Shown here: positions 1,354-23,915 of the stretch, in pieces | Position numbering within the stretch: position 1 is the stretch's first letter | How the letters are laid out: each line of letters starts with the position of its first letter | Assembly (NCBI GenBank): GCA_964406105.1 | Contig: CAYOQK010000024.1 | Span: 27,294-91,293, forward strand | Length of the DNA: 64,000 nt | Origin: an uncultured bacterium | Lineage (GTDB): Bacteria > Hydrothermota > Hydrothermia > WGAB01 | Direction of reading: 5' to 3' | Position numbers and translations under genes: made by a program | Notes under the pieces: model-generated | The model's input: only the letters and a program-made list of their open reading frames with translations | The model's database searches: none | What the model was told of the DNA's origin: nothing

Positions 1354-2454
1354 ATGAACCCCCGAAACCTTCCCCTCAAACGCCTGGATCGTTACGTGCT
1401 CTCCCAGTTTTTTCAACTGTTCGTCATCATGGTGGCGGCCGTGATCCTGCTTTTCATCGTCGTCAACTTCTTTGAACGCCTGGACAAATTCGTGGACCGC
1501 AAGGCCCCACCCTGGGCAATCCTTCGGTTCTACTGGTTCCAGATCCCCTATCTTTACGTGCTGTTTTCGCCCGTGGGAGCCCTGCTGGCGGCCTTCTTCT
1601 CCGTGGGGGAGATGGCCCGACGGTACGAGATCCTGGCGGTGAAAACCGCTGGAGTCCCGGTGTATCGCTTTTTGGCGCCCCTGGTGGTGGCAGGGATCTT
1701 GTTGTCGGCGGTGGCCTTCGGCGTCAACGACCTGTGGGTTCCGGAGGCCCAGCATCGGGTACGGGAGATCAAAACCTACGAGCTGCATCTGGAAAGCCCG
1801 CGCACCATCAAACGCCTGCGGGACATGGCCTTTCTGGGCCAAGGCGGCGTGCTGTATTACTTCGGCAAGGTGGTCAACGATACGCTGGCGGTACAGGCCT
1901 CCATCACCCGCTTGGATTCCCTGGAACGGGTGGTGTTCCGGGTGGACGCGGATACCGCGGTGTTCCGACAGGGCCACTGGCACCTGAAACACGGCACCGA
2001 GTTCCGGTTTGAAAACGGCCGGCCCACCCAGGTGACCCTGTTCCGGGCGCGGGCATATCCGGAGTTCACCGAAACCCCAGCCCAGTTTCTAAAGCAACGG
2101 CGGCGTTTAGACGAACTGAACATTCGGGCCCTTCGTCGGCTCATTCACACCTTGGAACAGGCGGGGTTTGATACCAACCGCGAGCAGGTGGAGCTCCAGG
2201 TGCGTTTTGCCTTTCCCCTGGCCAATCTCATCGTGCTCCTGTTCGCCTTGGCCCTGTCGGTGGAAATGCGGGGCCGTGGCCGGGCCTATGGCTTTGGACT
2301 GGCTGTGTTCGTGGCCTTCTTTTACTGGGGCCTTCTGCAGGCCACCCGGTCCATGGCGGGCGTGGGCCAACTGAACCCTGTGTTCTCTGCGTGGTTTCCC
2401 AATTTGGTGTTCCTGGTGGCCGCCCTCTGGGCCTTCCGCCGTGTCCGCACCTGA
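1354..2454 (+). CDS. LptF/LptG (YjgP/YjgQ) family LPS export permease
   Basis: N-terminus LKRLDRYVLSQFF followed by a hydrophobic TM is a classic LptF/G start, with a large periplasmic domain then C-terminal TMs. ATG at 1354 chosen over the ORF-track start 1315, which overlaps coaX. Confidence 0.75.
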   Translation: MNPRNLPLKRLDRYVLSQFFQLFVIMVAAVILLFIVVNFFERLDKFVDRKAPPWAILRFYWFQIPYLYVLFSPVGALLAAFFSVGEMARRYEILAVKTAGVPVYRFLAPLVVAGILLSAVAFGVNDLWVPEAQHRVREIKTYELHLESPRTIKRLRDMAFLGQGGVLYYFGKVVNDTLAVQASITRLDSLERVVFRVDADTAVFRQGHWHLKHGTEFRFENGRPTQVTLFRARAYPEFTETPAQFLKQRRRLDELNIRALRRLIHTLEQAGFDTNREQVELQVRFAFPLANLIVLLFALALSVEMRGRGRAYGFGLAVFVAFFYWGLLQATRSMAGVGQLNPVFSAWFPNLVFLVAALWAFRRVRT

Positions 2455-2510
2455 ACAAAAGCGGCCCCAGGGGTTCCCCGGGGCCGCTCCAAGAGAACGA
2501 TCAACACACC

Positions 2511-4349
2511 TCAGCGCAGGATCACCACACGGGCAGTTTGGGCATGGGAACCCGCCTGCACCCGCAGGAAGTACACCCCTGAGGCAATGGCGTTCAGGTC
2601 TATCGGCCAGGTATGTTCTCCTGGCGGTACAGTGCCCCGGAACCAGCGATAAACCCGCCGGCCAGCACCATCGTAGAGATCCACGGTAAGGGCGGTTTGG
2701 GTGGCCACCCGTACCTGCAACCGGGCTTGCCGGTGGATCACCGAAGGCACGCGGAGGCTCAGGGCCGGTGCACTGGAGCCGGACTCAGCCACCTCCACGT
2801 AGATGAACACGAAATCGTCATCACCTCGGGGCTCAATGGTGTATCCGCCGCCCACGTACCGTACCACGCCGGTGACGCCAAGGGTATCGCCCTCATGGGG
2901 CTGGTACGTGTACGCATCGCGGTTGCCCACCCGGGCGATGCCCGAGCCGTCGTCAATTTCAAAGTAGGGGCCGCCTTCGTTGGGGTTCACCACCCAAGCG
3001 GTATCCACCCGTACCAGCACACCTTCGTAGGGCTCACCCCCACCGCCGGGTGCGAGGGTCCCGGTGGAGATGTCCACGGGTTCGGGCAAGGGGTGGCCGC
3101 TGGAAATCACACGGAAGAAGATCACGTCCACGATCTCGGTCATGTGGTAGTACTCGTACACCGAGCCCACCAGGATCACGGAGTCGCCCATCAGGGGTTC
3201 GTGGTCATAGTCGTACACCATGATGCCGGAGAAGGGCCCGCCTTGGGCCTCTTCAATGTAGTACCAGTTGGAGGCCGTGGAATCCACGGTGCAGATGCCG
3301 GAAACCGCCACCCGGCGGCCCACCCAGTTGCTGGTGCCGGTATCGGTGGTATCGCTCTGCAAGGTGACGATGGACACCAAGCCGCCCCAGAACCGCGCGG
3401 AATCCAGAGGCATAGTGTTCCCCGCGGTATCCTGCACGCCGGACACGAGCAGCAGGTACTCTTCACCTGCCGTCATCGGGGTGGTGGCGAGGTGCACCAG
3501 TTTGGGGTTGGCGGCGTCCAAAGTGGCCGAGACCACCGACACCCCGCCCGAGAGGGTGTAGTTTGCCGGGTTCTCGGCTGAGGTTTCCTCTACCGGTGCG
3601 GTGAAGTACACGTATACCGAGTCAAACCCAATGGCAAAGGCCGTGGAGAGGTGCAGCACGTGCACCTGGATGTCATCGTCGGAGCGGGGTTCAATGCGGA
3701 ACAGGCCGTAGTACACCCGCACGGGTCCCCGCACCGTGAGGTGGTCTCCCAGTTGGGGGGTGTAGGTGTAGTTGCCGTTGTTGCGGATGTACACGTAGCC
3801 GGTGCCATCGGTCACCTCCCAGTCGTTGTTGGGCCCGGAGGTGCTGGTGACATACACGCTGGGGAGTTCCACCAGCACGCCTTCGTAAGCCTCGGCCGAG
3901 TCCGGCGGGTACATGCTGGTGGCCGAGGTGTCCAGATAGCCGCAGTAGATCTGGGCGGCCGGGGGAAGCGAATGCCCGCTGGACACGATGATGGCATCGG
4001 AGGCACTGCTGACCTTGATTTCGGTGTTGCCGTAGTATTCGTCCACCTGGCCGGTGATCACCACAGAATCCCCTTTCTCAATGGGCACCACCGCTTGGTT
4101 GCTGGTGAAGTACACCTGGATGCCGGACCAGGGGCCACCATTGGATTCGGCCAGGAAGAACACCCGAGAACCGGCCACTTCACCTACATCGGAGACGGCG
4201 ATGCCGGTGGTGGTGACCACCTGGCCGATGTAGGCCGAGGTGTCCGACCCGGGCAGGCGGTTCCCCTGGATCTCATGGATCGGCACAAACTCCTGGGCCG
4301 CCAGCCACCCAGGCAGCAAAGCCAGCACCCACATCCACCTTTGCATCAT
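2511..4349 (-). CDS. secreted protein with T9SS C-terminal sorting domain and an internally duplicated two-domain module
   Basis: Signal peptide MMQRWMWVLALLPGWLAAQE. C-terminus GVYFLRVQAGSHAQTARVVILR is a typical Por/T9SS CTD. Two copies of an [IxEIQG...YYGNTEI] + [YEGVLV...G.Y.IEPR.DDD] module resemble the N-terminal domains of ExeM/NucH-type extracellular nucleases, but no catalytic domain is present. Confidence 0.7.
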   Translation of the reverse strand: MMQRWMWVLALLPGWLAAQEFVPIHEIQGNRLPGSDTSAYIGQVVTTTGIAVSDVGEVAGSRVFFLAESNGGPWSGIQVYFTSNQAVVPIEKGDSVVITGQVDEYYGNTEIKVSSASDAIIVSSGHSLPPAAQIYCGYLDTSATSMYPPDSAEAYEGVLVELPSVYVTSTSGPNNDWEVTDGTGYVYIRNNGNYTYTPQLGDHLTVRGPVRVYYGLFRIEPRSDDDIQVHVLHLSTAFAIGFDSVYVYFTAPVEETSAENPANYTLSGGVSVVSATLDAANPKLVHLATTPMTAGEEYLLLVSGVQDTAGNTMPLDSARFWGGLVSIVTLQSDTTDTGTSNWVGRRVAVSGICTVDSTASNWYYIEEAQGGPFSGIMVYDYDHEPLMGDSVILVGSVYEYYHMTEIVDVIFFRVISSGHPLPEPVDISTGTLAPGGGGEPYEGVLVRVDTAWVVNPNEGGPYFEIDDGSGIARVGNRDAYTYQPHEGDTLGVTGVVRYVGGGYTIEPRGDDDFVFIYVEVAESGSSAPALSLRVPSVIHRQARLQVRVATQTALTVDLYDGAGRRVYRWFRGTVPPGEHTWPIDLNAIASGVYFLRVQAGSHAQTARVVILR

Positions 4350-4402
4350 CGTTGAACCTCCTTGCTTGTTCTTCAGGTTCGCCGGCCCGATGGCCGGGCC
4401 TT

Positions 4403-5707
4403 TCAGAATCCTACGCCAAACTCTTGCAACACTTGAACGAATACCTGGGCCGCTCGGCCCTGCCCGTTGAGCTTATGCAACGGGAACCCCAAAAACACCA
4501 CCTGGGCAGGTCCACCAGCCGGATACCGCAGCGACACAAAGGCCGCTGACCAGTTGACCAGATCGGGGAACCGATACAACCCTTCGCTCATGGAGTCGGG
4601 AACGAAGCCTGTGATGTGGGACAGGATCGGCACCGAGAGCCACAGGCTGTCGGGATAGGGGGGCACCGAGGTGACCAGAGGCCAGGGAGGCAACAGGAAC
4701 TTGTCCAGCGCCAAGGAATCGGGTTCGGCCACGTGCAGGTAATCTCTGACGAAGTCGTTGACCGTGGCCCCTACCAGCCGTTGGTTGCTCACATAGAGTT
4801 TTCCTCCCTGGTCCAGGAACTGGGCCAAGGCCCCCTGGGCGCCGGTAAAGTGTCCTCCTGAGGCCCCGGCGTACCACAGCAGGACCTCAAATCCCAGATC
4901 GTTGACCACTGCGTTAAGGTCTATGGGGCTGTAGGGCAGCCCCTCTTCCACCCGCCACACGGAATACAGGACGCCCAGGGAATCCAGCACCTGACGATAA
5001 AAGATCCCAGCGGTATCCCCGGGTTCGTCGTCCACCAACAGCACGGAGCCCACCGCAGGCTTCACCACAAAAGTGTCGGCTCGGACCTCGGACAGGGCAC
5101 CGGCATCGTCCAAGGCACGCACATGGAACACCCGCACGCCCGGGGCGAGGTTTCGGAGGGTTACTCGGGTGGTTTCCGCCGAAACGAAATGGGCAAAGGA
5201 ATCGGCATCGGTATCCAGCCACCAGAAGTACCCTTGGATGGTTTCATCGCCATCCTCGTCGTGGCCTTCCCAATAGAAGGTGACCACAGGGAACACCGTG
5301 TCTTGGGGCAAACTGCCCGGCAGGAACATCACCGTGGGAGGCGTATTGACCACCGGCAACGTCAGGGTGGCCGGGGTAGGGTCCAGGGCCCCCTCGTTAT
5401 CCTGGGCCCACACATACACCGTGTGAAACACGGGTTCAGGGCCGGAGGTGAACACAAAGGTGCTGCAATGGGAAGTGGTAAACCCTCGTTGCTGGGTATC
5501 GTCCACTGCCACGAAAAACCCGATCACCTCGCCATCAGGGTCGTTGCCGTACCAGCATAGGTGTTGCCGAGCCCCGGTGGTGTCCACCGTTCCCTCAATG
5601 AACAGATGGGTTTCCGGGGGTTGGTTGGGGACCGGCTCCGGTGCCGGTACCCGCTGGCACGCAAAGGCAAGCACAAGCCCTGCCAAAACAAATCTCAATC
5701 GCTTCAT
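4403..5707 (-). CDS. lipoprotein with repeated WxGxDxDG beta-sandwich-like modules and a C-terminal class-I-GATase/ThuA-like region
   Basis: Lipobox LVLAFAC. Repeats CWYGNDPDGEV... / YWEGHDEDGDETI.... C-terminal VLLVDDEP...LLWYAGASGG...GGKLYVS pattern. Start overlaps the upstream gene by 4 nt. Confidence 0.6.
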   Translation of the reverse strand: MKRLRFVLAGLVLAFACQRVPAPEPVPNQPPETHLFIEGTVDTTGARQHLCWYGNDPDGEVIGFFVAVDDTQQRGFTTSHCSTFVFTSGPEPVFHTVYVWAQDNEGALDPTPATLTLPVVNTPPTVMFLPGSLPQDTVFPVVTFYWEGHDEDGDETIQGYFWWLDTDADSFAHFVSAETTRVTLRNLAPGVRVFHVRALDDAGALSEVRADTFVVKPAVGSVLLVDDEPGDTAGIFYRQVLDSLGVLYSVWRVEEGLPYSPIDLNAVVNDLGFEVLLWYAGASGGHFTGAQGALAQFLDQGGKLYVSNQRLVGATVNDFVRDYLHVAEPDSLALDKFLLPPWPLVTSVPPYPDSLWLSVPILSHITGFVPDSMSEGLYRFPDLVNWSAAFVSLRYPAGGPAQVVFLGFPLHKLNGQGRAAQVFVQVLQEFGVGF

Positions 5708-7518
5708 TTCACGATCAGAAACTTGGTTCGTTTCACCTGTCCCGTGGCGTGGTCCCGAACCACCACGTAGTACAGGCCCGTGGCCACTGGAAACCCGCGG
5801 TCGCTGATCAGGTTCCAGGCTTCCTCGCCGCTATAGGGATCATCGTGCTCCAGGGTTTTCACCAAGTCTCCAGCGAGGTTGTAGATGTAAAGGGTCGCCC
5901 GCTGGGGTAGGTTGTAGAACCGGATCTGGCGGCCATAGGCGCCTGGAGCATCAAACCGCGAGGAAAGGTGATAGGGGTTGGGGTATACGCCGATTTCTCG
6001 GTCTGGCTCGCTGGTGGGCGGGGTGCCAGGCACCACTCGGGTGGCGTTGTTTCTTAGGGCACTTTCCAGCGGTGGGAGGCCGATTTCAGGATCCCCTTGG
6101 TCAAAGGAAGTGACGGCGTACTCGTACACAAACCCGTTCTTCAGGCCGGTATCCTCAAACCGGTACCAGCCGCGATAGGCGCCGGTATCCACCGTGTCCG
6201 GCAGGCCCACGTTAAAGCCCAGGGAATCCACCCGATCAAACTCCTTCAGCAGGATCCAGGTGGTATCTGGCCAGTGTCGTCGGTACACCCGATACCCTTC
6301 AAAGTCCAATTTTCCGGTGCTGGGGTCGGGGGCGGTCTCTGGGCTTCGGTCCCAGTAGAGGGTGGCCCTGTGGTTCCCAGGGATCACCACCAGGCGTGGG
6401 GAAGGCGGAGGACCAGGGAGAACGTAGTGGGCATCGTAGGCCTTCTGGGCCCATCCGGCGTTTTCCAGCAGATGGTCCAATGATTCCCCACCCACAAAGG
6501 CCACCACCAACTGCACCGAATCCTGGTTAGACAACGAAGCAAAGGGGCCCACGGAGATCATGGAAATGGGATCGGGGTAGCCGTGTTCGGCCACGTACTC
6601 ATCATCCACATCTGGATCACGTAGAGTGTCGCTCAGGAGCTGGTAGCGTTGGATGTCCGACACCGAACCGGTCATGTCTTGCCAGGACCACCACTGGAAA
6701 CCCACCTGCAGAGAATCCAGGGGAATTCGGTGGTCATTGAACGCCACCCCCAGGAGTTTGAGCCCAATATACTGGGTGGCCACGGTGTCAAAGCCGTCGT
6801 TCCGCTCGTAAATGAGGTGCAAGGAATCCAGGTACACCAAACGTTTGTGCTGAAAGAAGGGGGTTCGGCCGAACTGGTCGCCCCAGAACTCCCGGTTACC
6901 AGTGACCAATTCGGCGTACATGCCCAAGAAGAGATCCAGGAGCAGCCCCAGGCCCGTGTAGTGAACGGTGTAGGTAACGATTACGAAATCGTCGGCAAAG
7001 GGGTAACTCCAGGCATAACTGCGGAGATCCACCTTCAGGTGCAGCGGGGTGTGGTTGGGTACAGGTTGGAGATCGTCGTAGAAGGTGGCCAAGAAATCCT
7101 CCTCGGAGACGGCCTCAGGTGAGTAGTAGGGAGAGGTCAACAGGCTGGAGCGGATGCGTATGGTGTCGCTATCTGCTGGGGTGGGGTAAAACTCAAAGCC
7201 CTCAGAGCCTGCGGTGGCGCTGGTGGCGTCCACCACGCCGGTGGTCACCAGGGTATCGCCCTCGGTGGTCACCGCACCCACCCAAAGGCCTCCCCGATAC
7301 AGGTGTTCGGTACCCGACCCCCGGGGGTACTCCAAGGAGGGCAAGGGGTCGCCGGTGGCAGGGTCATACACCCGGAACCCGTTGCCCAGCATGCCAAAGT
7401 TGGTAATGGTCAACGACAGGTTGCCCACCCGGGTGTAGTGGGTGATGTCGGTTTTTGCGACCAGAGGGGCCACAACGAGGCCCACTCCGACGAAAACGGG
7501 CCAGAGGCGTCGGATCAC
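5704..7518 (-). CDS. secreted protein with T9SS C-terminal sorting domain
   Basis: 604 aa. N-terminal hydrophobic signal. C-terminus GLYYVVVRDHATGQVKRTKFLIVK matches the T9SS CTD. Has an FN3-like internal region. 4-nt overlaps on both sides indicate operon coupling. Confidence 0.7.
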   Translation of the reverse strand: MIRRLWPVFVGVGLVVAPLVAKTDITHYTRVGNLSLTITNFGMLGNGFRVYDPATGDPLPSLEYPRGSGTEHLYRGGLWVGAVTTEGDTLVTTGVVDATSATAGSEGFEFYPTPADSDTIRIRSSLLTSPYYSPEAVSEEDFLATFYDDLQPVPNHTPLHLKVDLRSYAWSYPFADDFVIVTYTVHYTGLGLLLDLFLGMYAELVTGNREFWGDQFGRTPFFQHKRLVYLDSLHLIYERNDGFDTVATQYIGLKLLGVAFNDHRIPLDSLQVGFQWWSWQDMTGSVSDIQRYQLLSDTLRDPDVDDEYVAEHGYPDPISMISVGPFASLSNQDSVQLVVAFVGGESLDHLLENAGWAQKAYDAHYVLPGPPPSPRLVVIPGNHRATLYWDRSPETAPDPSTGKLDFEGYRVYRRHWPDTTWILLKEFDRVDSLGFNVGLPDTVDTGAYRGWYRFEDTGLKNGFVYEYAVTSFDQGDPEIGLPPLESALRNNATRVVPGTPPTSEPDREIGVYPNPYHLSSRFDAPGAYGRQIRFYNLPQRATLYIYNLAGDLVKTLEHDDPYSGEEAWNLISDRGFPVATGLYYVVVRDHATGQVKRTKFLIVK

Positions 7519-8528
7519 GGTTCACCTCCCTCGCTTCCTGGCCGCACCGGTCGGATGTACTTTTCCAGCCATTCTCCCTGGGGGCTTTGGAAGGCGATGT
7601 ACAGGGTCATGCCGTCGGGGGTGGTGGCACAGGACACCGGCCGGGCCATGGAGTCATCCGGGTGCCGGGTTTCCACGACGAAGGCGCCGGTAGATCCAAA
7701 CTTCTGCACCCGGTGGTTGCCGTAATCGGCCACGTACACCGCCCCGGAGGTGTCCACCGAAACGTCCACGGGCTGCAGGAAATAGCCAGGCAGGGTGTCG
7801 CCCTCGTGTGAGGTTCCGCCCAGGTGCAGGAGATTCACGCGGGGCGTATCCACGGAGATGGCCTCCACCCAGTTGTGGCCGGTGCTGGCGACATACACCG
7901 CTCCCTGGTGGTAAAACAGGCCGCGGGGATCCTCCACGTTGAGGATCCCTGAGCCTGGGCCTGCCAGGGTGTCCAACAGGTTTCCAGAGGTATCACACAC
8001 CAGCACCAGGTCCAGGTTTCGCACCGACAGGTACAGGCGATGCTGATCGTCCACGGTGAGGCCCCCGGGCACCAACTGCTGCCACAGGGTATCGGGCTGG
8101 CCGTTGACGGTATCCACCCGTTGGACCAGCCACCGGTCAATGGCAAAGGCCGCCACAGGGGTACCTCCCAGGGAAAAGCCTCGGATCTCTTGTTGGGCGG
8201 AGTCCACCACCCACAGGGTGAAATCCGGGGCTTGGGCCACCGCCACAGGTGTTTCCAAGCCTTCAAAGGCTACCGAGGACGGGACCCCGTTGGTGAAGAA
8301 CCTGCGGAGCCCTTGCTGATCCACCACGTAAAGAAAGCCGTCTCGTCCCAGGTACAGATCGCGAACCCCCTGCACCTCCAGGGGCACTTCGGGCCAGCCT
8401 TCCACCCGTACATAGGAGGATTCCGGGGGCATTCCGGTGTTCCCCACCGGAGGCAGCGGGTACTTTCGGCCGCACCCCAGCATCAGCAGGGTTGCCCATG
8501 TGATGAGGCCCAGGGTTCCCGTTCTCAT
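7515..8528 (-). CDS. NHL-repeat lipoprotein (six-bladed beta-propeller)
   Basis: Lipobox LMLGCG. Repeated YVAD.GNHRVQKF-type NHL motifs (VYVADYGNHRVQKF, LYLSVRNLD, LYVVDQQ). Confidence 0.65.
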   Translation of the reverse strand: MRTGTLGLITWATLLMLGCGRKYPLPPVGNTGMPPESSYVRVEGWPEVPLEVQGVRDLYLGRDGFLYVVDQQGLRRFFTNGVPSSVAFEGLETPVAVAQAPDFTLWVVDSAQQEIRGFSLGGTPVAAFAIDRWLVQRVDTVNGQPDTLWQQLVPGGLTVDDQHRLYLSVRNLDLVLVCDTSGNLLDTLAGPGSGILNVEDPRGLFYHQGAVYVASTGHNWVEAISVDTPRVNLLHLGGTSHEGDTLPGYFLQPVDVSVDTSGAVYVADYGNHRVQKFGSTGAFVVETRHPDDSMARPVSCATTPDGMTLYIAFQSPQGEWLEKYIRPVRPGSEGGEP

Positions 8529-9523
8529 CTTACCTCCAGGCTGATCCGGTCCACGTCGCCCAGGTATCCCATACCGGTACGGGCGTAATCAAAGGCGATC
8601 TGGTGTCCGCCCACCGACACCCGAACCCCAAAGCCCAGGCTTAGGCCTGAGGGCAGGGTTTCTCTACCTGGTCCTCGGCCGTTCAGTTGGTACCCGGCCC
8701 GAAGGAACAGTTTGTGGGCCACCGTGTATTCGGCTCCCAACCGGAAGGTTTCCATGAAGTCTGAGGGCTTTTCCAGTTGCAGGGCCAGGAGCAACGACCG
8801 CGTTGCGTATCCGGAAACCCCCATGCGATACACCACGGGCAAGGCAAAGGCTTGGTACATGGAGCCATCTTGGGGACGAACATCCGGGCCGATGTTGCTC
8901 AGGGCCACGCCCACTTGGATGCCTCGGTACCCCACATCGTACAGGGTGCCAAGATCCAGCGCCACGCCGAAGGTTCGGGTTACGTAAAGGTCTTCGCCGA
9001 GCACCTTGAGGTTCACTCCGAAGGAAAAGCGATCGCTGATCCGGAGGGCATAGTTCAGGCCAGCGAGGTAATCGCCGTAGCGGAAATACTCGCCGGTGCC
9101 TTCGGGGTGGTACTCGTCGGTCACCCGCATGGGATCGGTGCCCAGGTAGCCCACGAAGAGGCCCCAGGCACTCCCCTGTCGCCAGGGTTGGGCCCAAGCG
9201 ACAAAGGTGTACTGCACATCTACAGGCCACAGAGCGTGCGATGCTCCAGCCACAGGTCCCCTCAGGAAGCCGATCCCTGCGGGATTCCAGTAGGGGGCGG
9301 TCGCGTCGGTAGCCTGGGAAACGTAAGCCCCACCCAAGCCTACGGCCCGTGCGCCCACACCGATCTTGAGGAAGGCGAAGGCGGTGGTTCCCACCTTTTG
9401 GCCTCCCAGGATTTCAAAGAACCCGGCATTCAGGGGTGGGGTAAGGAACCCGATCGCGAGGCAAAGCCCCCACCACCAAGCCCAGAAGTGTTGCCGTGTG
9501 TTGTTTTGCATACCGCTCCTCAA
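8525..9523 (-). CDS. PorV/PorQ-family (FadL-like) outer-membrane beta-barrel protein
   Basis: 332 aa. N-terminal motif FLKIGVGARAVGLGGAYVSQATDATAPYWNPAGIGF resembles the PorV signature (ARAAGMGGA...WNPA). Alternating amphipathic beta-strands throughout. Confidence 0.6.
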   Translation of the reverse strand: MRSGMQNNTRQHFWAWWWGLCLAIGFLTPPLNAGFFEILGGQKVGTTAFAFLKIGVGARAVGLGGAYVSQATDATAPYWNPAGIGFLRGPVAGASHALWPVDVQYTFVAWAQPWRQGSAWGLFVGYLGTDPMRVTDEYHPEGTGEYFRYGDYLAGLNYALRISDRFSFGVNLKVLGEDLYVTRTFGVALDLGTLYDVGYRGIQVGVALSNIGPDVRPQDGSMYQAFALPVVYRMGVSGYATRSLLLALQLEKPSDFMETFRLGAEYTVAHKLFLRAGYQLNGRGPGRETLPSGLSLGFGVRVSVGGHQIAFDYARTGMGYLGDVDRISLEVR

Positions 9524-12129
9524 AAGTTTGCCGACAGGCCGATTTGGACACTTCGGGGTTCCCGATACCGAGCGGGGTTGAGCATCATCTCAGGGGTCGT
9601 GCGGGGCGGCAGCGGATCTCCAGGTTCGTAGGCTCGCCCTGTCACCGGGTTCACGTAGTACACGTTCCGGTGATTGAACAGGTTCCGCACCGACACCTGG
9701 AGGGTCCAGGAGCCGTGGAGCCAGCGGAACCCCTTTCGGAAGGACACATCTACCCGATGCCAAGGGGGTCCCAGCCGAGAGTTCCGCTCTCCGGGGTTGC
9801 CCAGGGTGTCTATTGGGGTATAGCGTCGGCCAGCGCTGTAGGAGGCGTTGACCACCAGTTGCCAGTCGTCGGGCAGGGTCCAGCGGCCGAGCACCGGGTG
9901 TTCGCCTGGGCCCCAGCGATACCCCAGGGTGAGGAACAGTTCGTACGGGCGGTCCCACCGCAGGTACCATTCGCCCAGGCTCTCCTCGGCGCCCACGAAA
10001 TAGAAGTCTTCCTCGGTGGAAGACCGTCCTTTGGCCTGGGACAGGGTCCATTCCAAACGGCCGAACCAATGGCGAAACAGGCGGCGTTCCCACCGCCCCT
10101 CCAGGCCCACGGTGCGCGCATAATCGGCGTTGAAGTACATCCAGTAATCCGGATTCGGAGGGATGCCGGGCACCTTGCGGGCCGTAGGGTAGTTAAAAAT
10201 GTCCTTGTAATACGCCACCAGGGACACCTTGGTGTGATCGTTCAACAGGTGTTCCCAACCGAGCTCATAGGCCACGGTCACCTGGGGTTTGAGGTGGGGA
10301 TTGCCCACCAACTCGTAGGACGAAGAGGCCCGCACCCCCAACTTGGAGTACACGTACTTGAAATCGGGCATTTGGGAAAAATGGCCGTAGGAAAAGAAGA
10401 ACTTGTCCACATCGGTTACAGGGTAAGCAATGCCGATCCTGGGACTAAGGTGACCCTTGTAGCGGTAGCCCAGACGAGGAATCCGAGGGGTTTCGTCCAG
10501 GTACCGCTGGTACTCCTGGGCCACGATGGGGGCCAGATCGCCGGAGGCCAACCCGCGTTCCACCCCTCGGTCCAGGTACCGGCCGGGCACCCAAAAGTCG
10601 TACCGCAGCCCCACGTTGGCCACCATCCCCGCAAAGGTGATCCGATCCTGCAGGTACAAGCCGCCTCTGGTGGTGTACACCCGATACACATCGTGGTTCA
10701 GGCCCAACCCATCGGGGGAGTAGAACCAGGGGTACTGGATATCAATCCACTGGGCCTCGGTGTAGTTCAGGAGGAGGCCCATTTTGGTGGTGTGCACAGC
10801 CCTGGGCATCACGGTCCAGTCGGCCTTCAAGATGTAGCTCTCCACGTAGTGGTCGTGCCAGTACGGTGCATCGCCCGCATCGTAAAAGCCATAGGGCGGG
10901 ACATCGTCCCGCCGCTCCTGGTACTCGCTCCAGTGCTTGCCCTGTACATCCAGGTGGAGGTTGGAGAACACCCGGGAAAGCCGCACCTCGTAAAAGGACC
11001 GGGGAGAAAGCATCTCCTTGTAGGAAAGGATGGCCTGGTTGGAATGTCGGGTGAACACAGGGTAATGGTCCAGGATCTCAATGTAGCGATAAGGAAAGCC
11101 GTAGGCGAAGGGGTAATCGCGTCGGTAGTAAAAGTAGCCTTGATTGATCTCCAACGACTGGGTAAAGGTGAGGTAAAGCTTTCGGCGGTCGTTGGGCGTA
11201 GCTGCCAGTTTGAGGATGGCTGAGAGTTCGTTCTCCTCTCGGGGAGAGAGCCGATCCGTGCCCACCACCGAGGAGTACAAAGGACGGCCCACATGGGGCA
11301 GATAGGTGTCGGTGGTGCGGTAAAACAGGTTGCCGAACACCGTGAGCCGACCCAACAACGGAGCCTTTTGAACCAGGGGGCCGGAGAGCGAAGCGTCCAC
11401 TTGATCGGTGTTAAAGAAACGGAACAGATACGGGTGGTCGGTACGCACCGAGGCCGAGGTGTGCCAGCGGTCACCCCCTTCCCGGATCTCCACCTGGATC
11501 ACGCCCGACATGGCCTCGCCGTGTTCGGCATTGAAGCCTCCCAGCACGGCCTCGTACTCTTGAATCGCCGAGGAGGGGATGTACACCGTAAACGCATTGC
11601 CCGACAGGGGGTCCCGCACTGGAATGCCGTCAATCATCATGACGATCTCGTTGGTGCGGCCGCCCCGGATGTGCACCTCGCGGGTACCGAAACTCACCAC
11701 CCCCGCCTGGGTGCTTAAGGCGGTAACCGCGTTGGTGGCGCCCAGGTTCTCCAGGTCTTGGGAACTGAGGTTGCGCAGGGTTGCGCTCACCTTTTGTTCC
11801 AGCAGGGGGCGTTTGGCGGTCACCACGATCTCCTGTTCCAGGGTGATGGCCTCCTCTTCCAAGTAGAAGTCCAGGGTAACGGGGGTGTTGCCCCGAACCT
11901 CCACGGTGTAGGTTTTATCGGTATAGCCGAGCATGGAGGCCGTGATCCGGTACTTTCCCGGTGGCACATCAGGGATCACATAGGCTCCGTTTTCGTCGGT
12001 GGCCGCCCCCAAAGGAGTGCCTTCCAGGTAAACGTTGGCACCGGGCAGGCCTTTGCCCGTGCGGGCGTCATACACGTGTCCCTGCACGAAGCCACTGACC
12101 AGTACCAGCACAGGCACCCAAGCGAGCAT
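9520..12129 (-). CDS. TonB-dependent receptor with N-terminal carboxypeptidase-regulatory-like domain (SusC-like)
   Basis: 869 aa. Signal peptide, CarbD_reg-like GHVYDARTGKGLPGANVYLEGT...NGAY, plug region (VVTAKRPLLEQ, IRGG), long beta-barrel ending in terminal F (SANF). Confidence 0.85.
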   Translation of the reverse strand: MLAWVPVLVLVSGFVQGHVYDARTGKGLPGANVYLEGTPLGAATDENGAYVIPDVPPGKYRITASMLGYTDKTYTVEVRGNTPVTLDFYLEEEAITLEQEIVVTAKRPLLEQKVSATLRNLSSQDLENLGATNAVTALSTQAGVVSFGTREVHIRGGRTNEIVMMIDGIPVRDPLSGNAFTVYIPSSAIQEYEAVLGGFNAEHGEAMSGVIQVEIREGGDRWHTSASVRTDHPYLFRFFNTDQVDASLSGPLVQKAPLLGRLTVFGNLFYRTTDTYLPHVGRPLYSSVVGTDRLSPREENELSAILKLAATPNDRRKLYLTFTQSLEINQGYFYYRRDYPFAYGFPYRYIEILDHYPVFTRHSNQAILSYKEMLSPRSFYEVRLSRVFSNLHLDVQGKHWSEYQERRDDVPPYGFYDAGDAPYWHDHYVESYILKADWTVMPRAVHTTKMGLLLNYTEAQWIDIQYPWFYSPDGLGLNHDVYRVYTTRGGLYLQDRITFAGMVANVGLRYDFWVPGRYLDRGVERGLASGDLAPIVAQEYQRYLDETPRIPRLGYRYKGHLSPRIGIAYPVTDVDKFFFSYGHFSQMPDFKYVYSKLGVRASSSYELVGNPHLKPQVTVAYELGWEHLLNDHTKVSLVAYYKDIFNYPTARKVPGIPPNPDYWMYFNADYARTVGLEGRWERRLFRHWFGRLEWTLSQAKGRSSTEEDFYFVGAEESLGEWYLRWDRPYELFLTLGYRWGPGEHPVLGRWTLPDDWQLVVNASYSAGRRYTPIDTLGNPGERNSRLGPPWHRVDVSFRKGFRWLHGSWTLQVSVRNLFNHRNVYYVNPVTGRAYEPGDPLPPRTTPEMMLNPARYREPRSVQIGLSANF

Positions 12130-12414
12130 CGGGGAAAGTATAGGCCCTGGCGCGGCACACCCACAAGGCGAGGGAGGTTTCTGGCAACCTCGGCCCCACG
12201 TCCCTGGAGGTCTTACCGGGGGCCTTGCCTTTTACTTGAGCCCCAAGGGGTTGCAACGTGCTCGCTGCCGAAGAAAATGGGGTTGGGCGGGTTTATAAGT
12301 TTACGGCCCTCGGCCCGTTTCCCTTTGCCCATTCCTTCCCGGTGTTCCCAAGCCTCCGGTGGCCAGAGCCCTTGACACCCCCCTTACAATTGGAGAAACC
12401 AAGGGGGCTTTGCC

Positions 12415-14772
12415 ATGCATCACATCCAAAAGGCAGCTGTACTCGGAGCCGGGACCATGGGGAGCCAGATCGCTGCCCACCTCGCCAACATTGGCGTGGA
12501 TGTCCTGCTCCTGGACATCGTGCCGCCCGATGCTCAAGACCCGCAGGATCGCAATCGTTTCCCTCGCTTGGCCCTGCAAAGGCTTCAGAAGTCTCAACCC
12601 CCGGCTTTTTACCACCCTGATTTTGCGGGTCGCATCCGCATCGGGAACTTTGAGGACGATCTCCCCAAGGTCTCGGAGGTGGACTGGATCGTGGAGGCCG
12701 TGGTAGAACGGCTGGACATCAAGCGCGCCCTGTTTGAGCGCGTGGAGCAGTTCCGGACTCCCGGCACCCTGGTGAGCACCAACACCTCCGGGCTCTCGGT
12801 GAATCAGCTGGCCGCAGGGCGGTCCGAGGATTTCCGCCGCCACTTCCTGGGCACCCACTTCTTCAATCCTCCGCGCTTCATGAAGCTCTTGGAACTGGTG
12901 CCCCAGCAAGACACAGACCCCGAGGTGCTTCGGTTCATGGTGGATTTCGGCCGACGCCGGCTGGGAAAAGGTGTGGTGATCGCCAAAGACACCCCCAACT
13001 TCATCGCCAACCGTTTGGGCGTGTTCGGCATCCTGCACACCATCCACACCATGGTGGAAATGGATCTCACCGTGGAGGAGGTGGATGCCATCACGGGACG
13101 AGCCATGGGGCGACCCCGCACCGCCACCTTCCGCACCATAGACCTGGTGGGCTTGGATGTGCTCCTGCACGTTGCCCGCAATGTCTACGAGAACGCACCC
13201 AACGACGAGATGCGAGAGATCTTCAAACCCCCGGAGTTTCTGGAAAAGATGGTGGAACGGGGGCTCCTGGGCGACAAAGCCGGTGGCGGCTTTTACAAGA
13301 AGGAAAACGGTCGCCGCTTGGTGCTGGACTGGAAAACCCTGGAATACCGGGAACGACAGAAGCCGAAGTTCGCCTCGGTGGACACGGCCCTGTTAGAGGA
13401 CACCCCAGAGGCCCGAATCCGGGTACTGCTCCAAGGCAAGGATAAGGCCGCGGAGTTCGCCTGGCGTACGCTCTCGGCCTTCCTGACGTATGCGGCCCGC
13501 CGTATCCCTGAGATCGCCGACGATATCCTCAGCGTGGACAACGCCATCAAATGGGGCTTCAACTTCCGCCTGGGTCCCTTTGAAACCTACGATGCCATCG
13601 GAGTGCGGTGGTTCGTGGAACGGCTGGAACAGGAAGGCCAACCGGTACCTGAACGGGTGCAGGAACTCCTGGACGCAGGGAAAGACCGGTTTTACCTGCA
13701 AGAACCCACCCGTCGGCTGTACTTTGACTTCACCCGCAAAGACCACGTCCCCGAGGAACTGCCCGAAGGGGTTATCGTGCTGGAATACCTGAAGGCAGAG
13801 GGCCGCGAAGTTCTGGCGAATCCCGAGGCCAGCCTCATTGACCTGGGCGATGGCGTCGCCCTGCTGGAGTTCCACACCAAAGCCAATGCCTTGGGTCCAG
13901 GCACCATCCAGATGATCTTTGACAGCCTGGAAAAGGTCCGCAGCGACTTTGACGCCTTGGTGCTGGGCAACCGAGGCCGCCACTTCTCCGCGGGCGCAAA
14001 CCTGGCGTTGATCCTGCAGGCCATCGCCGAGGAGGAATGGGACGAACTGGACTACATGGTGCGGCGGTTCCAGCAGGCGGCTATGGCGCTCAAGTACTTT
14101 GAGAAGCCCGTGGTGGCCGCACCCTTTGGACGGGTACTCGGTGGAGGCACGGAGATCACCATGCACACCCACCGGGCCCAGGCGGCCGCCGAGACCTACA
14201 TGGGGCTGGTGGAGGTGGCCGTAGGCCTGCTGCCTGCAGGCGGTGGCACCAAGGAAACCCTGATCCGCTTTACCCAGGACATCATGGCAATCCCAGATGC
14301 CGATCCCTACCCCTTCCTGCGGGAGGCCCTGACCCAGATCGGGATGGCTAAGGTGTCCATGAGCGCCTACGAGGCCCAACAGATGCGGTACCTGCGGCCC
14401 GGCGACGGTGTAACGATCAACGACGATTTCCTGCTGCACGACGCCAAACAGGTGGCTTTAGAGATGGCTCGTACGGGGTTCACACCGCCCACCCCGAAGA
14501 AGATCAAGGTCACCGGTGAATCCGGCTTTGCGTATCTCCAGATGCTCATCTACAACCTGCTGGAGGGCAAACAGATCACTGAGCACGATGCCTTTATCGT
14601 CACCCAGATCGCTCGGGTACTCACCGGAGGCTCTGTTCCTTACGGCACCGAGCTCACGGAGCAGGATCTGCTGGATTTGGAGCGTGAGGCCTTCCTGCGG
14701 CTCTGTGGCACAGAGAAAACGCAGCAGCGCATCATCCACATGCTCAACACCGGCAAACCCCTCCGCAACTAA
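12415..14772 (+). CDS. fadN: 3-hydroxyacyl-CoA dehydrogenase / enoyl-CoA hydratase fusion (FadN-type)
   Basis: 785 aa. N-terminal Rossmann [14 protein letters not shown] (HAD NAD-binding), C-terminal crotonase fold ([17 protein letters not shown]). Followed by thiolase and ACAD as in the B. subtilis fadN-fadA-fadE operon. Confidence 0.85.
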
Positions 14773-14786
14773 CAGGAGGAACCATC

Positions 14787-15962
14787 ATGAGACAGGCCGT
14801 TTTGGCTTTTCCCGTGCGCACCCCGGTGGGCAAAGCACCCCGGGGCAGTTTGAAGGACACCCGGCCCGACGAACTGGCGGCCCTTGTGATCCGCGAAGTG
14901 GTCCGCCGGTCGGGCATTGACCCCCAGGAAGTGGACGACGTGATCCTGGGGTGCGCCTTCCCCGAGGCCGAACAGGGGATGAACGTGGCTCGGGTGGCCC
15001 TGATCCGGGCCGGCTTGCCGAACTCCGTGCCCGGAATGACCGTCAACCGGTTCTGCTCCTCTGGGCTTCAGGCGATCGCTATCGCTGCAGAACGCGTGAT
15101 GGTGGGGGCCGCAGATCTCATCATCGCCGGAGGCGTGGAGTCCATGAGCCGCGTGCCCATGGGCGGCTTCCGCTCCTCTCCCAACCCGTACCTGATGGAG
15201 CACTACCCCCAACTCTACATGGCCATGGGGCTTACCGCTGAGCGGGTGGCGGAAAAGTACGGCATTTCACGCGAGGACCAGGACCGCTTCGGATACGAGA
15301 GCCACATGAAGGCGGCCCGCGCGATCCGCGAGGGCAAGTTTCAGGAAGAGATCGTTCCCGTTCACACCCGCGTGATCCGTCGCACCGAGGACGGCGAGCA
15401 AGTGGTGCAGGAGATCACCTTGGAGGTGGACGAGGGGGTACGGTTTGACACCAGTTTGGAGAAAATGGCCCGATTGAAACCCGTGTTCAAACAGGGGGGA
15501 ACCGTCACTGCAGGCAATTCCTCGCAAATGAGCGATGGAGCAGCGGCGGTGCTCGTGATGTCGGAGGAGAAGGCCAAAAGCCTGGGCATTGAACCCATGG
15601 CGTACTTCCGTGGATACGCCGTGGCAGGCGTGCCTCCCGAGATCATGGGCATCGGCCCGGTGGAGGCCGTGCCAAAGGTGCTACGCCTTACCGGCGTACG
15701 CCTGGAAGACCTGGATCTCATTGAGCTGAACGAGGCCTTTGCCGCCCAATCCTTGGCCGTCATTCGGGAATTGAACCTGCCCTACGAAAAGGTGAACGTG
15801 AACGGTGGCGCCATTGCCTTGGGCCACCCCCTGGGCTGCACGGGCGCCAAACTCACCGCTACCCTGCTCTATGAGATGAAGCGCCGAGATGCCACCTTGG
15901 GCCTGGTGACCATGTGCATCGGCGGCGGCATGGGCGCCGCTGGCATCTTTGAACGCCGTTAA
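14787..15962 (+). CDS. fadA: acetyl-CoA C-acyltransferase (thiolase)
   Basis: 391 aa. Active-site Cys context [12 protein letters not shown]-terminal GGGMG motif region. Confidence 0.9.
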
Positions 15963-15976
15963 CCGGAGGGAAAACC

Positions 15977-17749
15977 ATGGCACAGGATACCCCGCTGTAC
16001 AAAAAGGGCGGAGGCTTTCTGCTGGCCGATACCCCGGCCGAGGAGATGTTCACCCCCGAGGAGTTCACCGAAGAGCAACGGATGTTTGCCCAGGCCGCAG
16101 ACGAGTTCATGGAAAAGGAGGTGCTCCCCAAAAACGAACAGATTGAAAAGCAGGACTTTGACCTGCTTCGTTACCTGATGAAGAAGGCTGGGGAACTGGG
16201 CCTGCTGGCGGTGGACATCCCGGAGAAGTACGGAGGCCTGGGGCTGGACAAGGTGTCTTCCATGCTCATCGCCGAGCGCATGGCCAAACAGGGGTCTTTC
16301 AGCGTAACCTGGGGCGCCCACACCGGCATCGGTACCCTGCCCATCGTGTTTTTCGGCACTGAAGAACAGCGGCAAAAGTACCTGCCGGGCCTGGCCTCTG
16401 CCGACATCATCGGGGCCTATGCCCTCACCGAACCCGGGGCAGGCACAGATGCCATGAACATCAAAACCCGGGCCGTTCTCTCGGACGATGGCAAGTCGTA
16501 CATTCTCAACGGCAGCAAACAGTTCATCACCAATGCGGCCATCGCCGATCTCTTCACGGTCTTTGCCAAGATTGACGGCGAGAAGTTCACGGCCTTTCTG
16601 GTGGAACGGGATACCCCGGGCCTGGAACTGGGCGCCGAGGAAAAGAAACTGGGCATCAAGGGATCCAGCACCCGAAGCCTGACCTTCAACAACGTCAAGG
16701 TGCCCGTGGAGAACGTGGTGGGCGAGATCGGCAAAGGACACCACATTGCCTTCGGCATCCTCAACATCGGGCGATACAAACTGGGCGTGGGCTCCGTAGG
16801 AGCAGCCAAGGAGGCTCTGAAGGTAGCGGTGAACTACGCCAAAGAGCGGGTGCAATTCGGCCAACCCATTGCCAACTTCGGCCTGATCCAAGAAAAGATC
16901 GCCCACATGACCACCCGCATCTTCGTTACCGAAACCATGGCGTACCGCTTGGCCGGGCTCCTGGACGAAGCCATGAAGGGCCTGGATCCCAACGCACCGG
17001 ACTACACCCAGAAGTCCTGGAATGCCGTGGCGGAGTATGCGGTGGAGTGCTCCATCCTCAAGGTGTACGGCTCCGAGATGCTGGACTACGTGGTGGACGA
17101 AACCGTACAGATCTTCGGAGGCTACGGCTACACCCAGGAGTACCCCGCAGAGCAGTACTACCGGGATTCACGGATCAATCGGATCTTTGAGGGCACCAAC
17201 GAGATCAACCGCATCCTGATCCCCGGGATGCTCATGCGGCGGGCCCTGAAGGGCCTGATCCCACTGGTCCCCGTAGCGGCCAAAACCGCCAAAGAGACCC
17301 TCACCCTAATGCCCACCATGATGCCGCGGCCCGAGGGGCCGTTTTCCAATGAGAAGTTCGCTCTGCAGATGGCCAAACGGATCGCCCTCACCCTGGCTGC
17401 GGTGGCAGCCGACAAGTTCAAAGAGGCCCTGCGTCAGGAGCAAGAGGTGCTCGCCGGTCTGGCGGATATCGTCACCGAGGTGTATGCCCTGGAAAGCATC
17501 CTCCTGCGTGCCCTCAAGTCGGGCCACCGTTTGATGGCCTCCATGGTAGAGATGTACACCTACGAGGCCATGAAGCGCATAGAGCTCCGGGCCTACGAGA
17601 TCCTGCCGTACATGAGCGAGGGCGACGAGCTCCGCACCCTGATCTCCACCGTCCGAAAACTGGTTCGGCCCTTTAGCCCGCCGAACCTCATCCAAAAAAG
17701 GAGGGAGATCGCCCGCACGGTCATTGACCAGGGCAAGTATCCCTTCTAA
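15977..17749 (+). CDS. fadE: acyl-CoA dehydrogenase (long form with C-terminal extension)
   Basis: 590 aa. ACAD N-terminal, middle and C-terminal domain motifs (YALTEPGAGTDA, GGYGYTQEYP...RDSRINRIFEGTNEI). Confidence 0.85.
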   Translation: MAQDTPLYKKGGGFLLADTPAEEMFTPEEFTEEQRMFAQAADEFMEKEVLPKNEQIEKQDFDLLRYLMKKAGELGLLAVDIPEKYGGLGLDKVSSMLIAERMAKQGSFSVTWGAHTGIGTLPIVFFGTEEQRQKYLPGLASADIIGAYALTEPGAGTDAMNIKTRAVLSDDGKSYILNGSKQFITNAAIADLFTVFAKIDGEKFTAFLVERDTPGLELGAEEKKLGIKGSSTRSLTFNNVKVPVENVVGEIGKGHHIAFGILNIGRYKLGVGSVGAAKEALKVAVNYAKERVQFGQPIANFGLIQEKIAHMTTRIFVTETMAYRLAGLLDEAMKGLDPNAPDYTQKSWNAVAEYAVECSILKVYGSEMLDYVVDETVQIFGGYGYTQEYPAEQYYRDSRINRIFEGTNEINRILIPGMLMRRALKGLIPLVPVAAKTAKETLTLMPTMMPRPEGPFSNEKFALQMAKRIALTLAAVAADKFKEALRQEQEVLAGLADIVTEVYALESILLRALKSGHRLMASMVEMYTYEAMKRIELRAYEILPYMSEGDELRTLISTVRKLVRPFSPPNLIQKRREIARTVIDQGKYPF

Positions 17750-17763
17750 AAGGAGGGCCCATC

Positions 17764-23832: not shown

Positions 23833-23915
23833 TGCGAGGGGCGGGACTCGAACCCGCACGGGAATACCCCACCAGATCCTAAATCTGGCGCGTCTGCCTA
23901 TTCCGCCACCCTCGC
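23833..23915 (-). tRNA. tRNA-Leu (anticodon TAG)
   Basis: Minus-strand read GCGAGGGTGGCGGAATAGGCAGACGCGCCAGATTTAGGATCTGGTGGGGTATTCCCGTGCGGGTTCGAGTCCCGCCCCTCGCA. 7-bp acceptor stem, anticodon loop TT-TAG-GA, long variable arm (type II), GGTTCGAGTCC T-arm. CCA not encoded. Confidence 0.85.

Follow-up and report, generated by a model that had tools for sequence, protein, structure and literature searches.

The subject of this work is an outer-membrane barrel gene, and the operon around it, in a 64,000-nucleotide stretch of DNA from an uncultured bacterium of the Hydrothermia (contig CAYOQK010000024.1, positions 27,294 to 91,293). The whole stretch is called the window, and coordinates are window coordinates unless another locus is named. 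The gene lies at 8525–9523 on the minus strand and encodes a barrel of the PorV/PorQ family. It stands second in a row of six minus-strand genes that abut one another, in the order TonB-dependent transporter, barrel, NHL lipoprotein, P604, P434 and P612. We propose that the barrel may serve an importer.

The Barrel and Its Family

Read from the TTG at 9523, the product has 332 residues; public gene calls (P0001) begin at ATG 9511 and give 328 residues, and this second start is the more likely one. The plus-strand translation of 8525–9523 is full of stops, placing the gene on the minus strand. The signal peptide ends in ...PPLNA, and the mature N-terminus, GFFEILGGQKVGT, is conserved. The N-terminal motif FLKIGVGARAVGLGGAYVSQATDATAPYWNPAGIGF (FLKIGVGAR...YWNPAGIGF) occupies residues 51–86 (9266–9373, minus strand). 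In A1, an alignment and profile of 25 barrel homologues, the motif residues F51, L52, I54, G55, N80 and P81 are invariant.

An earlier note, made from the sequence alone, took this motif as a hallmark of PorV/PorQ barrels. The motif is present, but its NPA(G) segment is common to FadL-type chains, one of which aligns with NPAAMAF at this place. That is, this part of the motif is generic to the FadL superfamily, and therefore only the full-length profile assigns the barrel to the PorV/PorQ branch. NCBIfam NF033709 (PorV_fam) matches the barrel with 172.2 bits against a cutoff of 90 (E 2e-50, model positions 1–324 of 326), and the orthologues score 189–233 bits. The note's assignment to the PorV/PorQ family is thereby borne out; it had named the lack of any significant PorV/PorQ profile match as evidence against itself, and NF033709 supplies such a match. 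The note had also proposed a check with the models for PorV and PorQ proper, and here the outcome is negative: the PorV equivalog NF033710 reaches 61.2 bits (cutoff 250) over the N-terminal two-thirds only, and the PorQ equivalog NF033711, the best-scoring of its kind, 89.7 bits (cutoff 220). The PorV2 equivalog NF052325 is likewise below its cutoff (65 bits; cutoff 325). The Pfam PorV model matches only the N-terminal 46 residues, with 34.3 bits. No match to a PorP/SprF family model is found at E ≤ 0.01 in Pfam or NCBIfam.

Against the PDB, the nearest match to profile A1 is the PorV of Flavobacterium johnsoniae (6h3i_F, E 2.6e-21), aligned over the whole length in two stretches. The homologues found number 1135, and those that carry names are called 'PorV/PorQ family protein'. 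Judged from its sequence, the barrel is a PorV/PorQ family member that is an orthologue of neither PorV nor PorQ. Full-length homology to PorV argues for the topology of a 14-strand-type outer-membrane barrel; an amphipathicity scan gives about 12 segments, the scan being crude and unreliable, with obvious segments missed. A1 also shows strong conservation in non-membrane segments such as TEYxPxGTGxYF and QLNHPxDNxEN.

PorV itself (F. johnsoniae Fjoh_1555, PDB 6H3I; Porphyromonas gingivalis PG0027/LptO) is the carrier for type A cargo of T9SS, the type IX secretion system. The window barrel is of the same family and is encoded alongside type A tails. Unlike PorV, it is about 70 residues shorter, with the PorV 253–325 loop region unmatched, and it is fixed in a TonB-transporter operon instead of lying beside porU. 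A porU gene adjoining the barrel gene was never seen in the window or in more than 70 other loci; the neighbors are the TonB-dependent transporter and the NHL lipoprotein.

As a FadL superfamily member with an NPA(G) hatch motif, the barrel might be a channel for long-chain fatty acids or hydrophobic compounds, tied to the divergent β-oxidation operon at 12415–19449, whose fadB-, fadA- and fadE-like genes begin 286 nucleotides upstream on the other strand. Pfam PF03349 (FadL/Toluene_X), however, scores 23.7 bits, below its gathering threshold of 29.7, and the matches of A1 to FadL/TodX chains in the PDB (E 2e-4 to 0.17 only) are some 17 orders of magnitude weaker than the match to PorV. The fad neighborhood is also absent from the relatives at 60%, 50% and 45% identity that keep the six-gene cassette. 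Because the fad adjacency is missing in the relatives examined and the FadL profile is below threshold, we reject a FadL-type channel as very improbable.

The Six-Gene Cassette

The junctions between the six genes are tight. In the window they are 4-nucleotide overlaps, except for 8 nucleotides before the barrel ATG and 53 nucleotides before P612; for the window and its relatives together, junctions are overlaps of 1–7 nucleotides or spacings of 8 nucleotides. The six-gene cassette is translationally coupled and co-translated. A scan of 2300–12500 for sigma-70 promoters and terminators gave nothing above shuffled expectation. The earlier note had spoken of a cargo operon. Two T9SS C-terminal-domain proteins are indeed encoded, P604 and P612, but the operon is really a TonB-dependent-transporter cassette of six genes conserved across phyla.

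The first gene (9520–12129, minus strand) encodes the TonB-dependent transporter, a protein of 869 residues with a signal peptide, a CarboxypepD_reg extension, a TonB box, a plug and a β-barrel. The Pfam scores are 76 bits for CarbopepD_reg_2, 36.9 for Plug and 41.4 for OMP_b-brl_3, and the C-terminus reads ...GLSANF. The TonB box, QEIVVTAKRP (residues 99–108; 11806–11835, minus strand), lies between the N-terminal extension and the plug. This textbook TonB box keeps the pattern (Q/G)-E-V/I-V-V-x-G/A-E/K-K/R-P in 16 orthologues that belong to other phyla, and this conservation therefore marks the transporter as a real energised importer. The closest solved relative is XusA (9gbc), a weak match with an E-value of 8e-7. 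The XusAB and BtuBG systems also pair a TonB transporter with an adjoining propeller lipoprotein, and the lid of XusA, XusB, is a surface lipoprotein. Unlike them, the window's propeller is of the NHL type and there are four further subunits.

The NHL-repeat β-propeller lipoprotein (7515–8528, minus strand; 337 residues) has the lipobox LMLGC, and its gene overlaps the barrel gene by 4 nucleotides. It matches Pfam NHL with 47.8 bits and the TRIM71 NHL propeller in the PDB with an E-value of 4e-28. A multihaem or extracellular-electron-transfer role for this protein was considered and dropped, as no CXXCH motif is found in any cassette protein. Lipobox-like motifs are enriched in the NHL family (23 of 35 members) and in the P434 family (33 of 58); they are not enriched in the families of P604 (3 of 52) and P612 (6 of 44).

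P604 (5704–7518, minus strand) is a secreted protein of 604 residues that lacks a Pfam family, and its homologues are all labeled 'hypothetical'. Structure predictions were made for it and for P434. P604 consists of a β-supersandwich (residues ~22–365), an Fn3-like domain and a PorZ-like T9SS tail. The tail, residues 505–604 (5707–6006, minus strand), matches the PorZ C-terminus model NF052228 with an E-value of 1.4e-5. The match of the P604 profile to the C-terminus of PorZ 5m11 is very weak and not significant alone (E 0.89), and the score against TIGR04183 is 16.5 bits, below the cutoff of 23. In cross-phylum comparisons the P604 tail has 43% identity, against 39% for the N-domain; in P612 the tail has 22%, against 26–31% for the OB domains. 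Conservation in the P604 tail is thus no lower than in the remainder of P604, which is the pattern expected for a retained binding domain. PorZ's propellers are absent from P604, the body of which is the β-supersandwich. P604 was also considered as a glycoside hydrolase, and the idea was rejected: only the non-catalytic N-domain fold is there, with no (α/α)6 domain.

P434 (4403–5707, minus strand) is a lipoprotein of 434 residues with the lipobox LAFAC, and it too lacks a Pfam family. Its predicted structure (predicted local distance difference test score, pLDDT, 90.8) has two Fn3/Ig-like domains and a GATase1/ThuA-like α/β domain. An amidotransferase assignment was rejected, since the similarity is one of fold only, at 6–13% identity, and no catalytic inference is drawn. 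The last gene of the cassette (2511–4349, minus strand) encodes P612, a secreted protein of 612 residues with two OB-fold/DUF5689-type domains, an Ig/CBM-like domain in the middle and, at the C-terminus, a T9SS tail of type A; P612 is described in detail with the substrate.

Conservation of the Cassette and Its Core

The same six genes are found in the same order in relatives at 60%, 50% and 45% identity, in flanks that are unrelated. These six-gene relatives include contigs of a cluster named Candidatus Hydrothermae by NCBI (Hydrothermae/WOR-3-like). The full set of six also turns up in Marinimicrobia, Calditrichota, KSB1, Zixibacteria, Ignavibacteriota and further groups, again in unrelated flanks. 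For a wider view, genomes were scanned with one genome per species, giving at least 80 loci, and the six-frame open reading frames (ORFs) of these loci were searched with the six window proteins. Counts of loci are counts among the matches listed, which do not include the window's genome and its close WOR-3 relatives. The titles of the records name Neomarinimicrobiota, Calditrichota, Zixibacteria, KSB1, Ignavibacteriota, Chlorobi-type bacteria, Kryptonia, Eisenbacteria and metagenome-assembled genomes (MAGs) labeled Bacteroidota.

In 69 of 76 assessable loci the barrel gene directly follows the transporter gene. P604, P434 and the transporter are together upstream of the barrel in 45 of 49 loci, and all four upstream genes in 34 of the 49. 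Single-sequence phmmer finds an NHL-type gene downstream of the barrel in 42 of 73 loci. The commonest order in other phyla is P604, P612, P434, transporter, barrel, NHL. In the public annotation of an Ignavibacteriota copy the products are called 'TonB-dependent receptor', 'hypothetical protein', 'T9SS type A sorting domain-containing protein' and 'PorV/PorQ family protein'.

Reduced versions reveal what is constant. In loci L069 and L084 the order is transporter, P604, barrel, and P612 is not between them. A third case is on plasmid pRMAR01 of Rhodothermus marinus DSM 4252 (L095; NC_013502.1, 8638–21117). First there comes a T9SS-tailed FG-GAP protein, followed by a TonB-dependent receptor (E 6e-67 at 99% coverage), a P604-like protein, a 'PorV/PorQ family protein' (E 1.5e-41), a T9SS-tailed peptidoglycan-recognition protein and, last, a serine hydrolase. 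The P604-like protein has 1132 residues and is annotated as 'hypothetical'; the similarity includes the tail (E 4e-38). No other record among 72,556 plasmids has a P604-like gene or this PorV-like gene, and on pRMAR01 both adjoin the sole full-length transporter match among the plasmids; 58 other plasmid records have partial transporter matches only. As the trio persists in L069, L084 and pRMAR01, the constant unit is therefore transporter, P604 and barrel. The accessory tail-bearing proteins vary, as they do in polysaccharide-utilisation loci, and the pRMAR01 module suggests that a cultivable organism has a version directed at peptidoglycan.

Two observations concern the surroundings of these reduced loci. 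The pRMAR01 module adjoins a type III-A CRISPR csm operon. Upstream of the transporter, L084 (868–2367; 41.8 bits, above threshold) and L069 (1219–2610; 26 bits, below threshold) have a FadL/Toluene_X-type barrel, beyond which Pfam finds little else in the accessory genes of these two loci.

It could be argued that the barrel is simply these lineages' general PorV, or PorQ, that is, a housekeeping T9SS shuttle that looks divergent through equivalogs trained on Bacteroidota and whose operon position is meaningless. The generic NF033709 does give the best full-length match in every lineage tested (172–233 bits), PorV is the closest solved relative, and no canonical PorV is seen within the window. 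The scores against the PorV, PorQ and PorV2 equivalogs, however, fell far below the cutoffs in every phylum tested, among them Ignavibacteriota, a part of Bacteroidota in GTDB. The barrel gene is never beside porU; across phyla it keeps its place behind one family of transporters, with junctions that overlap, and in R. marinus it is on a plasmid. Moreover, one Neomarinimicrobiota locus (L006, 12400–21011) offers better candidates for the general machinery. There the cassette is directly followed by an EEP nuclease with LTD and T9SS tail, and then by a cluster ending in SprA, which contains an M28 peptidase, a 291-residue protein, a 535-residue protein with a weak PorZ-like tail and two PorV/PorQ-like barrels. 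These additional barrels have 310 and 302 residues and score 86 and 72 bits to PorV_fam, so that three PorV-family paralogues lie within 10 kb. The two barrels and the PorZ-like-tail protein beside SprA, 4 kb away, would suit the general role better than the cassette barrel, and we regard a housekeeping PorV at this position as unlikely.

The constancy of P604 also bears on a different structural idea, in which the barrel packs against the transporter as an adaptor and its loops bind the NHL and P434 lipoproteins, with no T9SS tail involved. The precedent is BamG of the Bacteroidota β-barrel assembly machinery (BAM), a 14-strand FadL homologue bound tightly to BamA, the loops of which hold the surface lipoprotein BamH (PMC12578637). 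Both barrels belong to the FadL superfamily, the window barrel too being probably 14-stranded; BamG is a fixed companion to a larger barrel and holds surface proteins, as the window barrel would. The cassette encodes two lipoproteins, and the strongly conserved non-membrane segments would also suit such an adaptor. Unlike BamG, which is of the FadL/Toluene_X type with a conserved N-terminal extension, the window barrel is in the PorV/PorQ branch, whose known job is tail binding, and it is unlinked to bamA (38240–40510). The constant companion of barrel and transporter in L069, L084 and pRMAR01 is the tail-bearing P604 and not the lipoproteins. A BamG-type adaptor therefore has, in our judgment, little probability.

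Proposed Role of the Barrel

PorV-family barrels bind T9SS C-terminal domains and retain uncleaved partners, as in PorV–PorU and PorQ–PorZ, and carriers of the PorP/SprF type hold cargo encoded beside them, as in SprF–SprB (PMC10202324, PMC10994853). The window barrel is co-translated with two tail-bearing proteins, its partner P604 is constant, and the PorZ-like tail of P604 is conserved; it is therefore proposed to be the dedicated carrier and anchor of P604. P612 is possibly carried or anchored by the barrel as well. The 'shuttle' function that the earlier note attached to the barrel is an analogy.

In our proposal the barrel belongs, as a dedicated subunit, to a conserved six-gene uptake machine of the outer membrane, where it would hold tail-bearing proteins at the transporter, with extracellular nucleic acid as the likely substrate. 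We lean towards this reading, if only slightly. The steps would be as follows. The tail-bearing P604 and P612 would be exported by the type IX system, and the operon's own PorV-like barrel would carry both to the surface. There it would keep at least P604, through the uncleaved PorZ-like C-terminal domain. The barrel would thus replace the lipid anchor that is used in Bacteroidia for transporter lids such as SusD, DdbD, XusB and BtuG. Together with the NHL propeller and P434 lipoproteins, a Sus/Ddb-like 'utilisome' would be assembled around the transporter. P612 may capture extracellular nucleic acid through its nuclease-type OB/DUF5689 domains, as has been proposed for DdbD and the Riemerella genes, and the transporter would import the nucleic acid, or fragments of it, using TonB energy.

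Known systems offer partial parallels. In the P. gingivalis attachment complex a PorV-family barrel, PorQ, keeps one surface protein, PorZ, by an uncleaved C-terminal domain (PMC10202324), and the tail of P604 resembles that of PorZ. Unlike the PorQ–PorZ pair, P604 is a β-supersandwich where PorZ has two propellers, and the context is a transporter and not a sortase complex. The PorP/SprF systems, for example sprB–sprF, follow the same logic, a cargo-specific carrier or anchor in the cargo's own operon; they differ in that their barrels are of another family and their cargo is type B, whereas the window tails are type A-like.

Two observations count against such a dedicated role. No T9SS core genes are found within the 64-kb window. 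In addition, a PorV-family barrel of the first type, that is, of the cassette's type, stands alone directly after accD in a Cloacimonetes MAG (L008, 8938–10972; also L020), without the cassette.

P612 and the Substrate

The evidence on the substrate comes chiefly from P612. Its two OB/DUF5689-like domains are residues 22–228 (3666–4286, minus strand; jackhmmer iE 2e-48) and residues 323–514 (2808–3383, minus strand; iE 4e-52). The seed of this local jackhmmer search was a bona fide DUF5689 domain from locus L077 (Pfam 58.5 bits), and in a direct phmmer comparison the same seed matches a Hydrothermae P612 orthologue at 3e-21. The N-terminus of P612 matches NF033681, which describes the N-terminal region of ExeM/NucH, a non-catalytic part of extracellular nucleases, with an E-value of 8e-16, and the Pfam OB-fold model gives 30.8 bits. 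The type A T9SS C-terminal domain is residues 545–612 (2514–2717, minus strand), with 27.9 bits to TIGR04183 (cutoff 23). Among 39 P612 orthologues, the OB-fold model matches 22, Pfam DUF5689 12 and Por_Secre_tail 37. The part of the P612 family profile that covers domain 2 matches OB3–OB4 of the Streptococcus nuclease SpnA (9sf8) with an E-value of 1.5e-11.

These domains occur elsewhere in DNA-handling proteins. For SpnA, OB2 and OB3 are reported to be indispensable to binding and cleaving DNA (PMC13601614). DUF5689 is the domain of DdbD, which in the DNA-utilisation locus ddbABCDEF of Bacteroides thetaiotaomicron is proposed to be a DNA-binding lid on the TonB transporter DdbC (PMC12478041). 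In Riemerella, a DUF5689 protein and its partner, a CarboxypepD_reg barrel, are essential for natural transformation (PMC8459023). DdbCD and the genes RA0C_RS04915/04920 of Riemerella anatipestifer resemble the cassette in combining a CarboxypepD_reg TonB-type barrel with a DUF5689/OB-fold surface protein, and in some lineages the likeness reaches to secreted nucleases within or next to the locus. DdbD is the putative substrate-binding partner of its transporter; the DUF5689 protein of the window, P612, bears a T9SS tail and has no lipobox. Unlike the Ddb locus, the window cassette adds the PorV-like barrel, P604, P434 and the NHL propeller.

T9SS-tailed nucleases lie directly beside the cassette in 12 of 90 loci, 10 of which are within 80 genome-scan loci, among the matches listed. 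The adjoining nucleases are of the EEP type in L006/7, L018, L032, L033, L038, L046, L060 and L067, and of the PLD type in L066, L077 and L081, with one fused to DUF5689. The nuclease-bearing loci that are labeled come from Marinimicrobia, KSB1, Ignavibacteriota, Bacteroidota MAGs and Melioribacteraceae.

Several findings weigh against a DNA substrate. No nuclease is encoded in or beside the window's cassette, and most cassette loci are without an adjoining nuclease, a minority having one. The middle domain of P612 has weak CBM56 matches in 10 of 39 family members. The fold of P604 is typical of carbohydrate-active enzymes, and the R. marinus variant carries accessories of the peptidoglycan type. 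From the domain matches and the adjoining nucleases, we consider it nearly an even chance, falling a little short of one, that extracellular DNA is the substrate of the six-gene version.

A separate observation is that three members of the P612 family bear cytochrome c-type domains (Cytochrome_CBB3/Cytochrom_C), which hints at further functional diversification of the P612-type tail-bearing subunit.

The carbohydrate-enzyme type of β-sandwich in P604, taken together with its PorZ-like tail and with PorQ as the barrel's best equivalog, could instead point to a T9SS attachment-type module, an analogue of PorQ–PorZ plus PorF that would handle glycan or lipopolysaccharide for cargo attachment and would not be a nutrient importer. 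P. gingivalis PorF (PG0534), a 92-kDa barrel resembling a TonB receptor, is needed for full T9SS output (PMC5445135, PMC12704123). P604, however, lacks the PorZ propellers, and no PorU-like peptidase is present. P612 and the adjoining nucleases point to nucleic acid, and the accessory genes vary in the manner of utilisation loci. We consider such an attachment module quite improbable.

Returning to the barrel as a subunit of an uptake machine, the proposal may be widened. In much of the Fibrobacterota–Chlorobiota–Bacteroidota (FCB) superphylum apart from the classical Bacteroidia, one TonB-transporter family may lack a lipoprotein lid and use in its place a T9SS-exported P604 that is held permanently by a PorV-like barrel, with swappable tail-bearing modules setting the substrate. 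The six-gene version would then serve Marinimicrobia, Calditrichota, KSB1, Zixibacteria, Ignavibacteriota and WOR-3-like bacteria as an outer-membrane machine for DNA capture and uptake, and would be an evolutionary relative of the Ddb and Riemerella transporters. We offer this wider picture tentatively and regard it as rather doubtful. If it is true, the 'shuttle' fold of a secretion system has been repurposed as a structural subunit of an importer.

To our knowledge, PorV-family barrels are known only as carriers or anchors within the type IX secretion pathway, and the TonB-dependent 'utilisomes' that we know of have lipid-anchored partners only. A conserved operon that ties a PorV-like barrel and tailed T9SS proteins to a TonB-dependent transporter would connect both fields. 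It would give a function to two large 'hypothetical' families that lack a Pfam entry, P604 and P434. It would also suggest how abundant uncultured FCB lineages, such as the marine Marinimicrobia, capture extracellular DNA or other polymers; this bears on the scavenging of phosphorus and nitrogen and, possibly, on natural transformation. The plasmid copy in R. marinus and the Melioribacteraceae/Ignavibacteriota orthologues may allow testing in cultivable organisms. Public annotation already has a name for the protein family; searches of the searchable literature for PorV-like with TonB, for PorV2 and for PorV with Ignavibacteria and NHL found no description of the cassette, and we found none of the core trio or of a PorV-like barrel in an importer.

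A Second PorQ-Like Barrel beside accA

The window encodes a second, divergent barrel at 24913–25749 on the minus strand, outside the cassette. It starts at ATG 25749, has 278 residues and carries NPAGL at residues 41–45. The relatedness of this protein to the barrel of the cassette, suggested earlier from the NPAGL motif, is real and emerges at the level of the family. Alone, the protein scores 41.7 bits against PorV_fam, sub-threshold at a cutoff of 90, and as a single sequence against A1 its hhalign probability is 65%. Its family is small and conserved, with 17 representatives at E ≤ 1e-10. The profile of this family, A4, aligns with A1 end to end (hhalign probability 99.9%, E 6e-33) and matches the PorV structure 6h3i in the PDB at E 6e-12. 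Of 20 family members, 18 match PorQ and PorV_fam, with a best value of 2e-51. By these profile comparisons, the second barrel is PorQ-like but divergent.

Its gene is directly upstream of accA (23931–24905), which encodes the carboxyltransferase alpha subunit of acetyl-CoA carboxylase. An orthologue at 41% identity (P0285) is also directly upstream of accA, with a 4-nucleotide overlap. The coordinates of the pair are 23931–25749 (minus strand) in the window, 4001–5793 in L091 and 3299–5091 in L092. The PorQ-like barrel and accA are a conserved pair that is separate from the cassette. PorV/PorQ-like barrels are recurrently linked to acetyl-CoA carboxylase genes.

Other Genes in the Window

The β-oxidation operon at 12415–19449 (plus strand) encodes a fadB-like protein (3HCDH/ECH, 785 residues), a thiolase (391 residues), FadE (590 residues, 844 bits) and a 561-residue ORF. 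A run of envelope-biogenesis genes at 35036–42042 (plus strand) begins with a tetratricopeptide repeat (TPR) protein at 35036–35725, which has weak BamD/PorW-like matches, and continues with an 816-residue ORF, BamA at 38240–40510 (four POTRA stretches and Omp85) and a DegP/HtrA protease at 40474–42042.

A tricorn-like protease of 1012 residues is encoded at 54355–57393 (minus strand), with PD40/DPPIV propellers, Tricorn_C1, PDZ and Peptidase_S41. The segment 57499–63035 (plus strand) encodes a secreted protein of 1662 residues for which there is no Pfam family and whose T9SS tail stays below the cutoff (TIGR04183 20.1 bits; cutoff 23). Its gene is followed, with an overlapping junction, by one for a 183-residue protein with a weak DNRLRE-domain match.

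The longest ORFs at 32099–32434, 44343–45761, 48612–51248 and 53135–54358 have odd N-termini and third-position GC contents of 0.30, 0.46, 0.68–0.73 and 0.62, respectively; in the rest of the window the range is 0.64–0.84. ORFs with such atypical third-position GC and odd N-termini are probably not the real genes of these stretches. Rfam and tRNA scans of the window found a single feature, a tRNA-Leu at 23832–23916.

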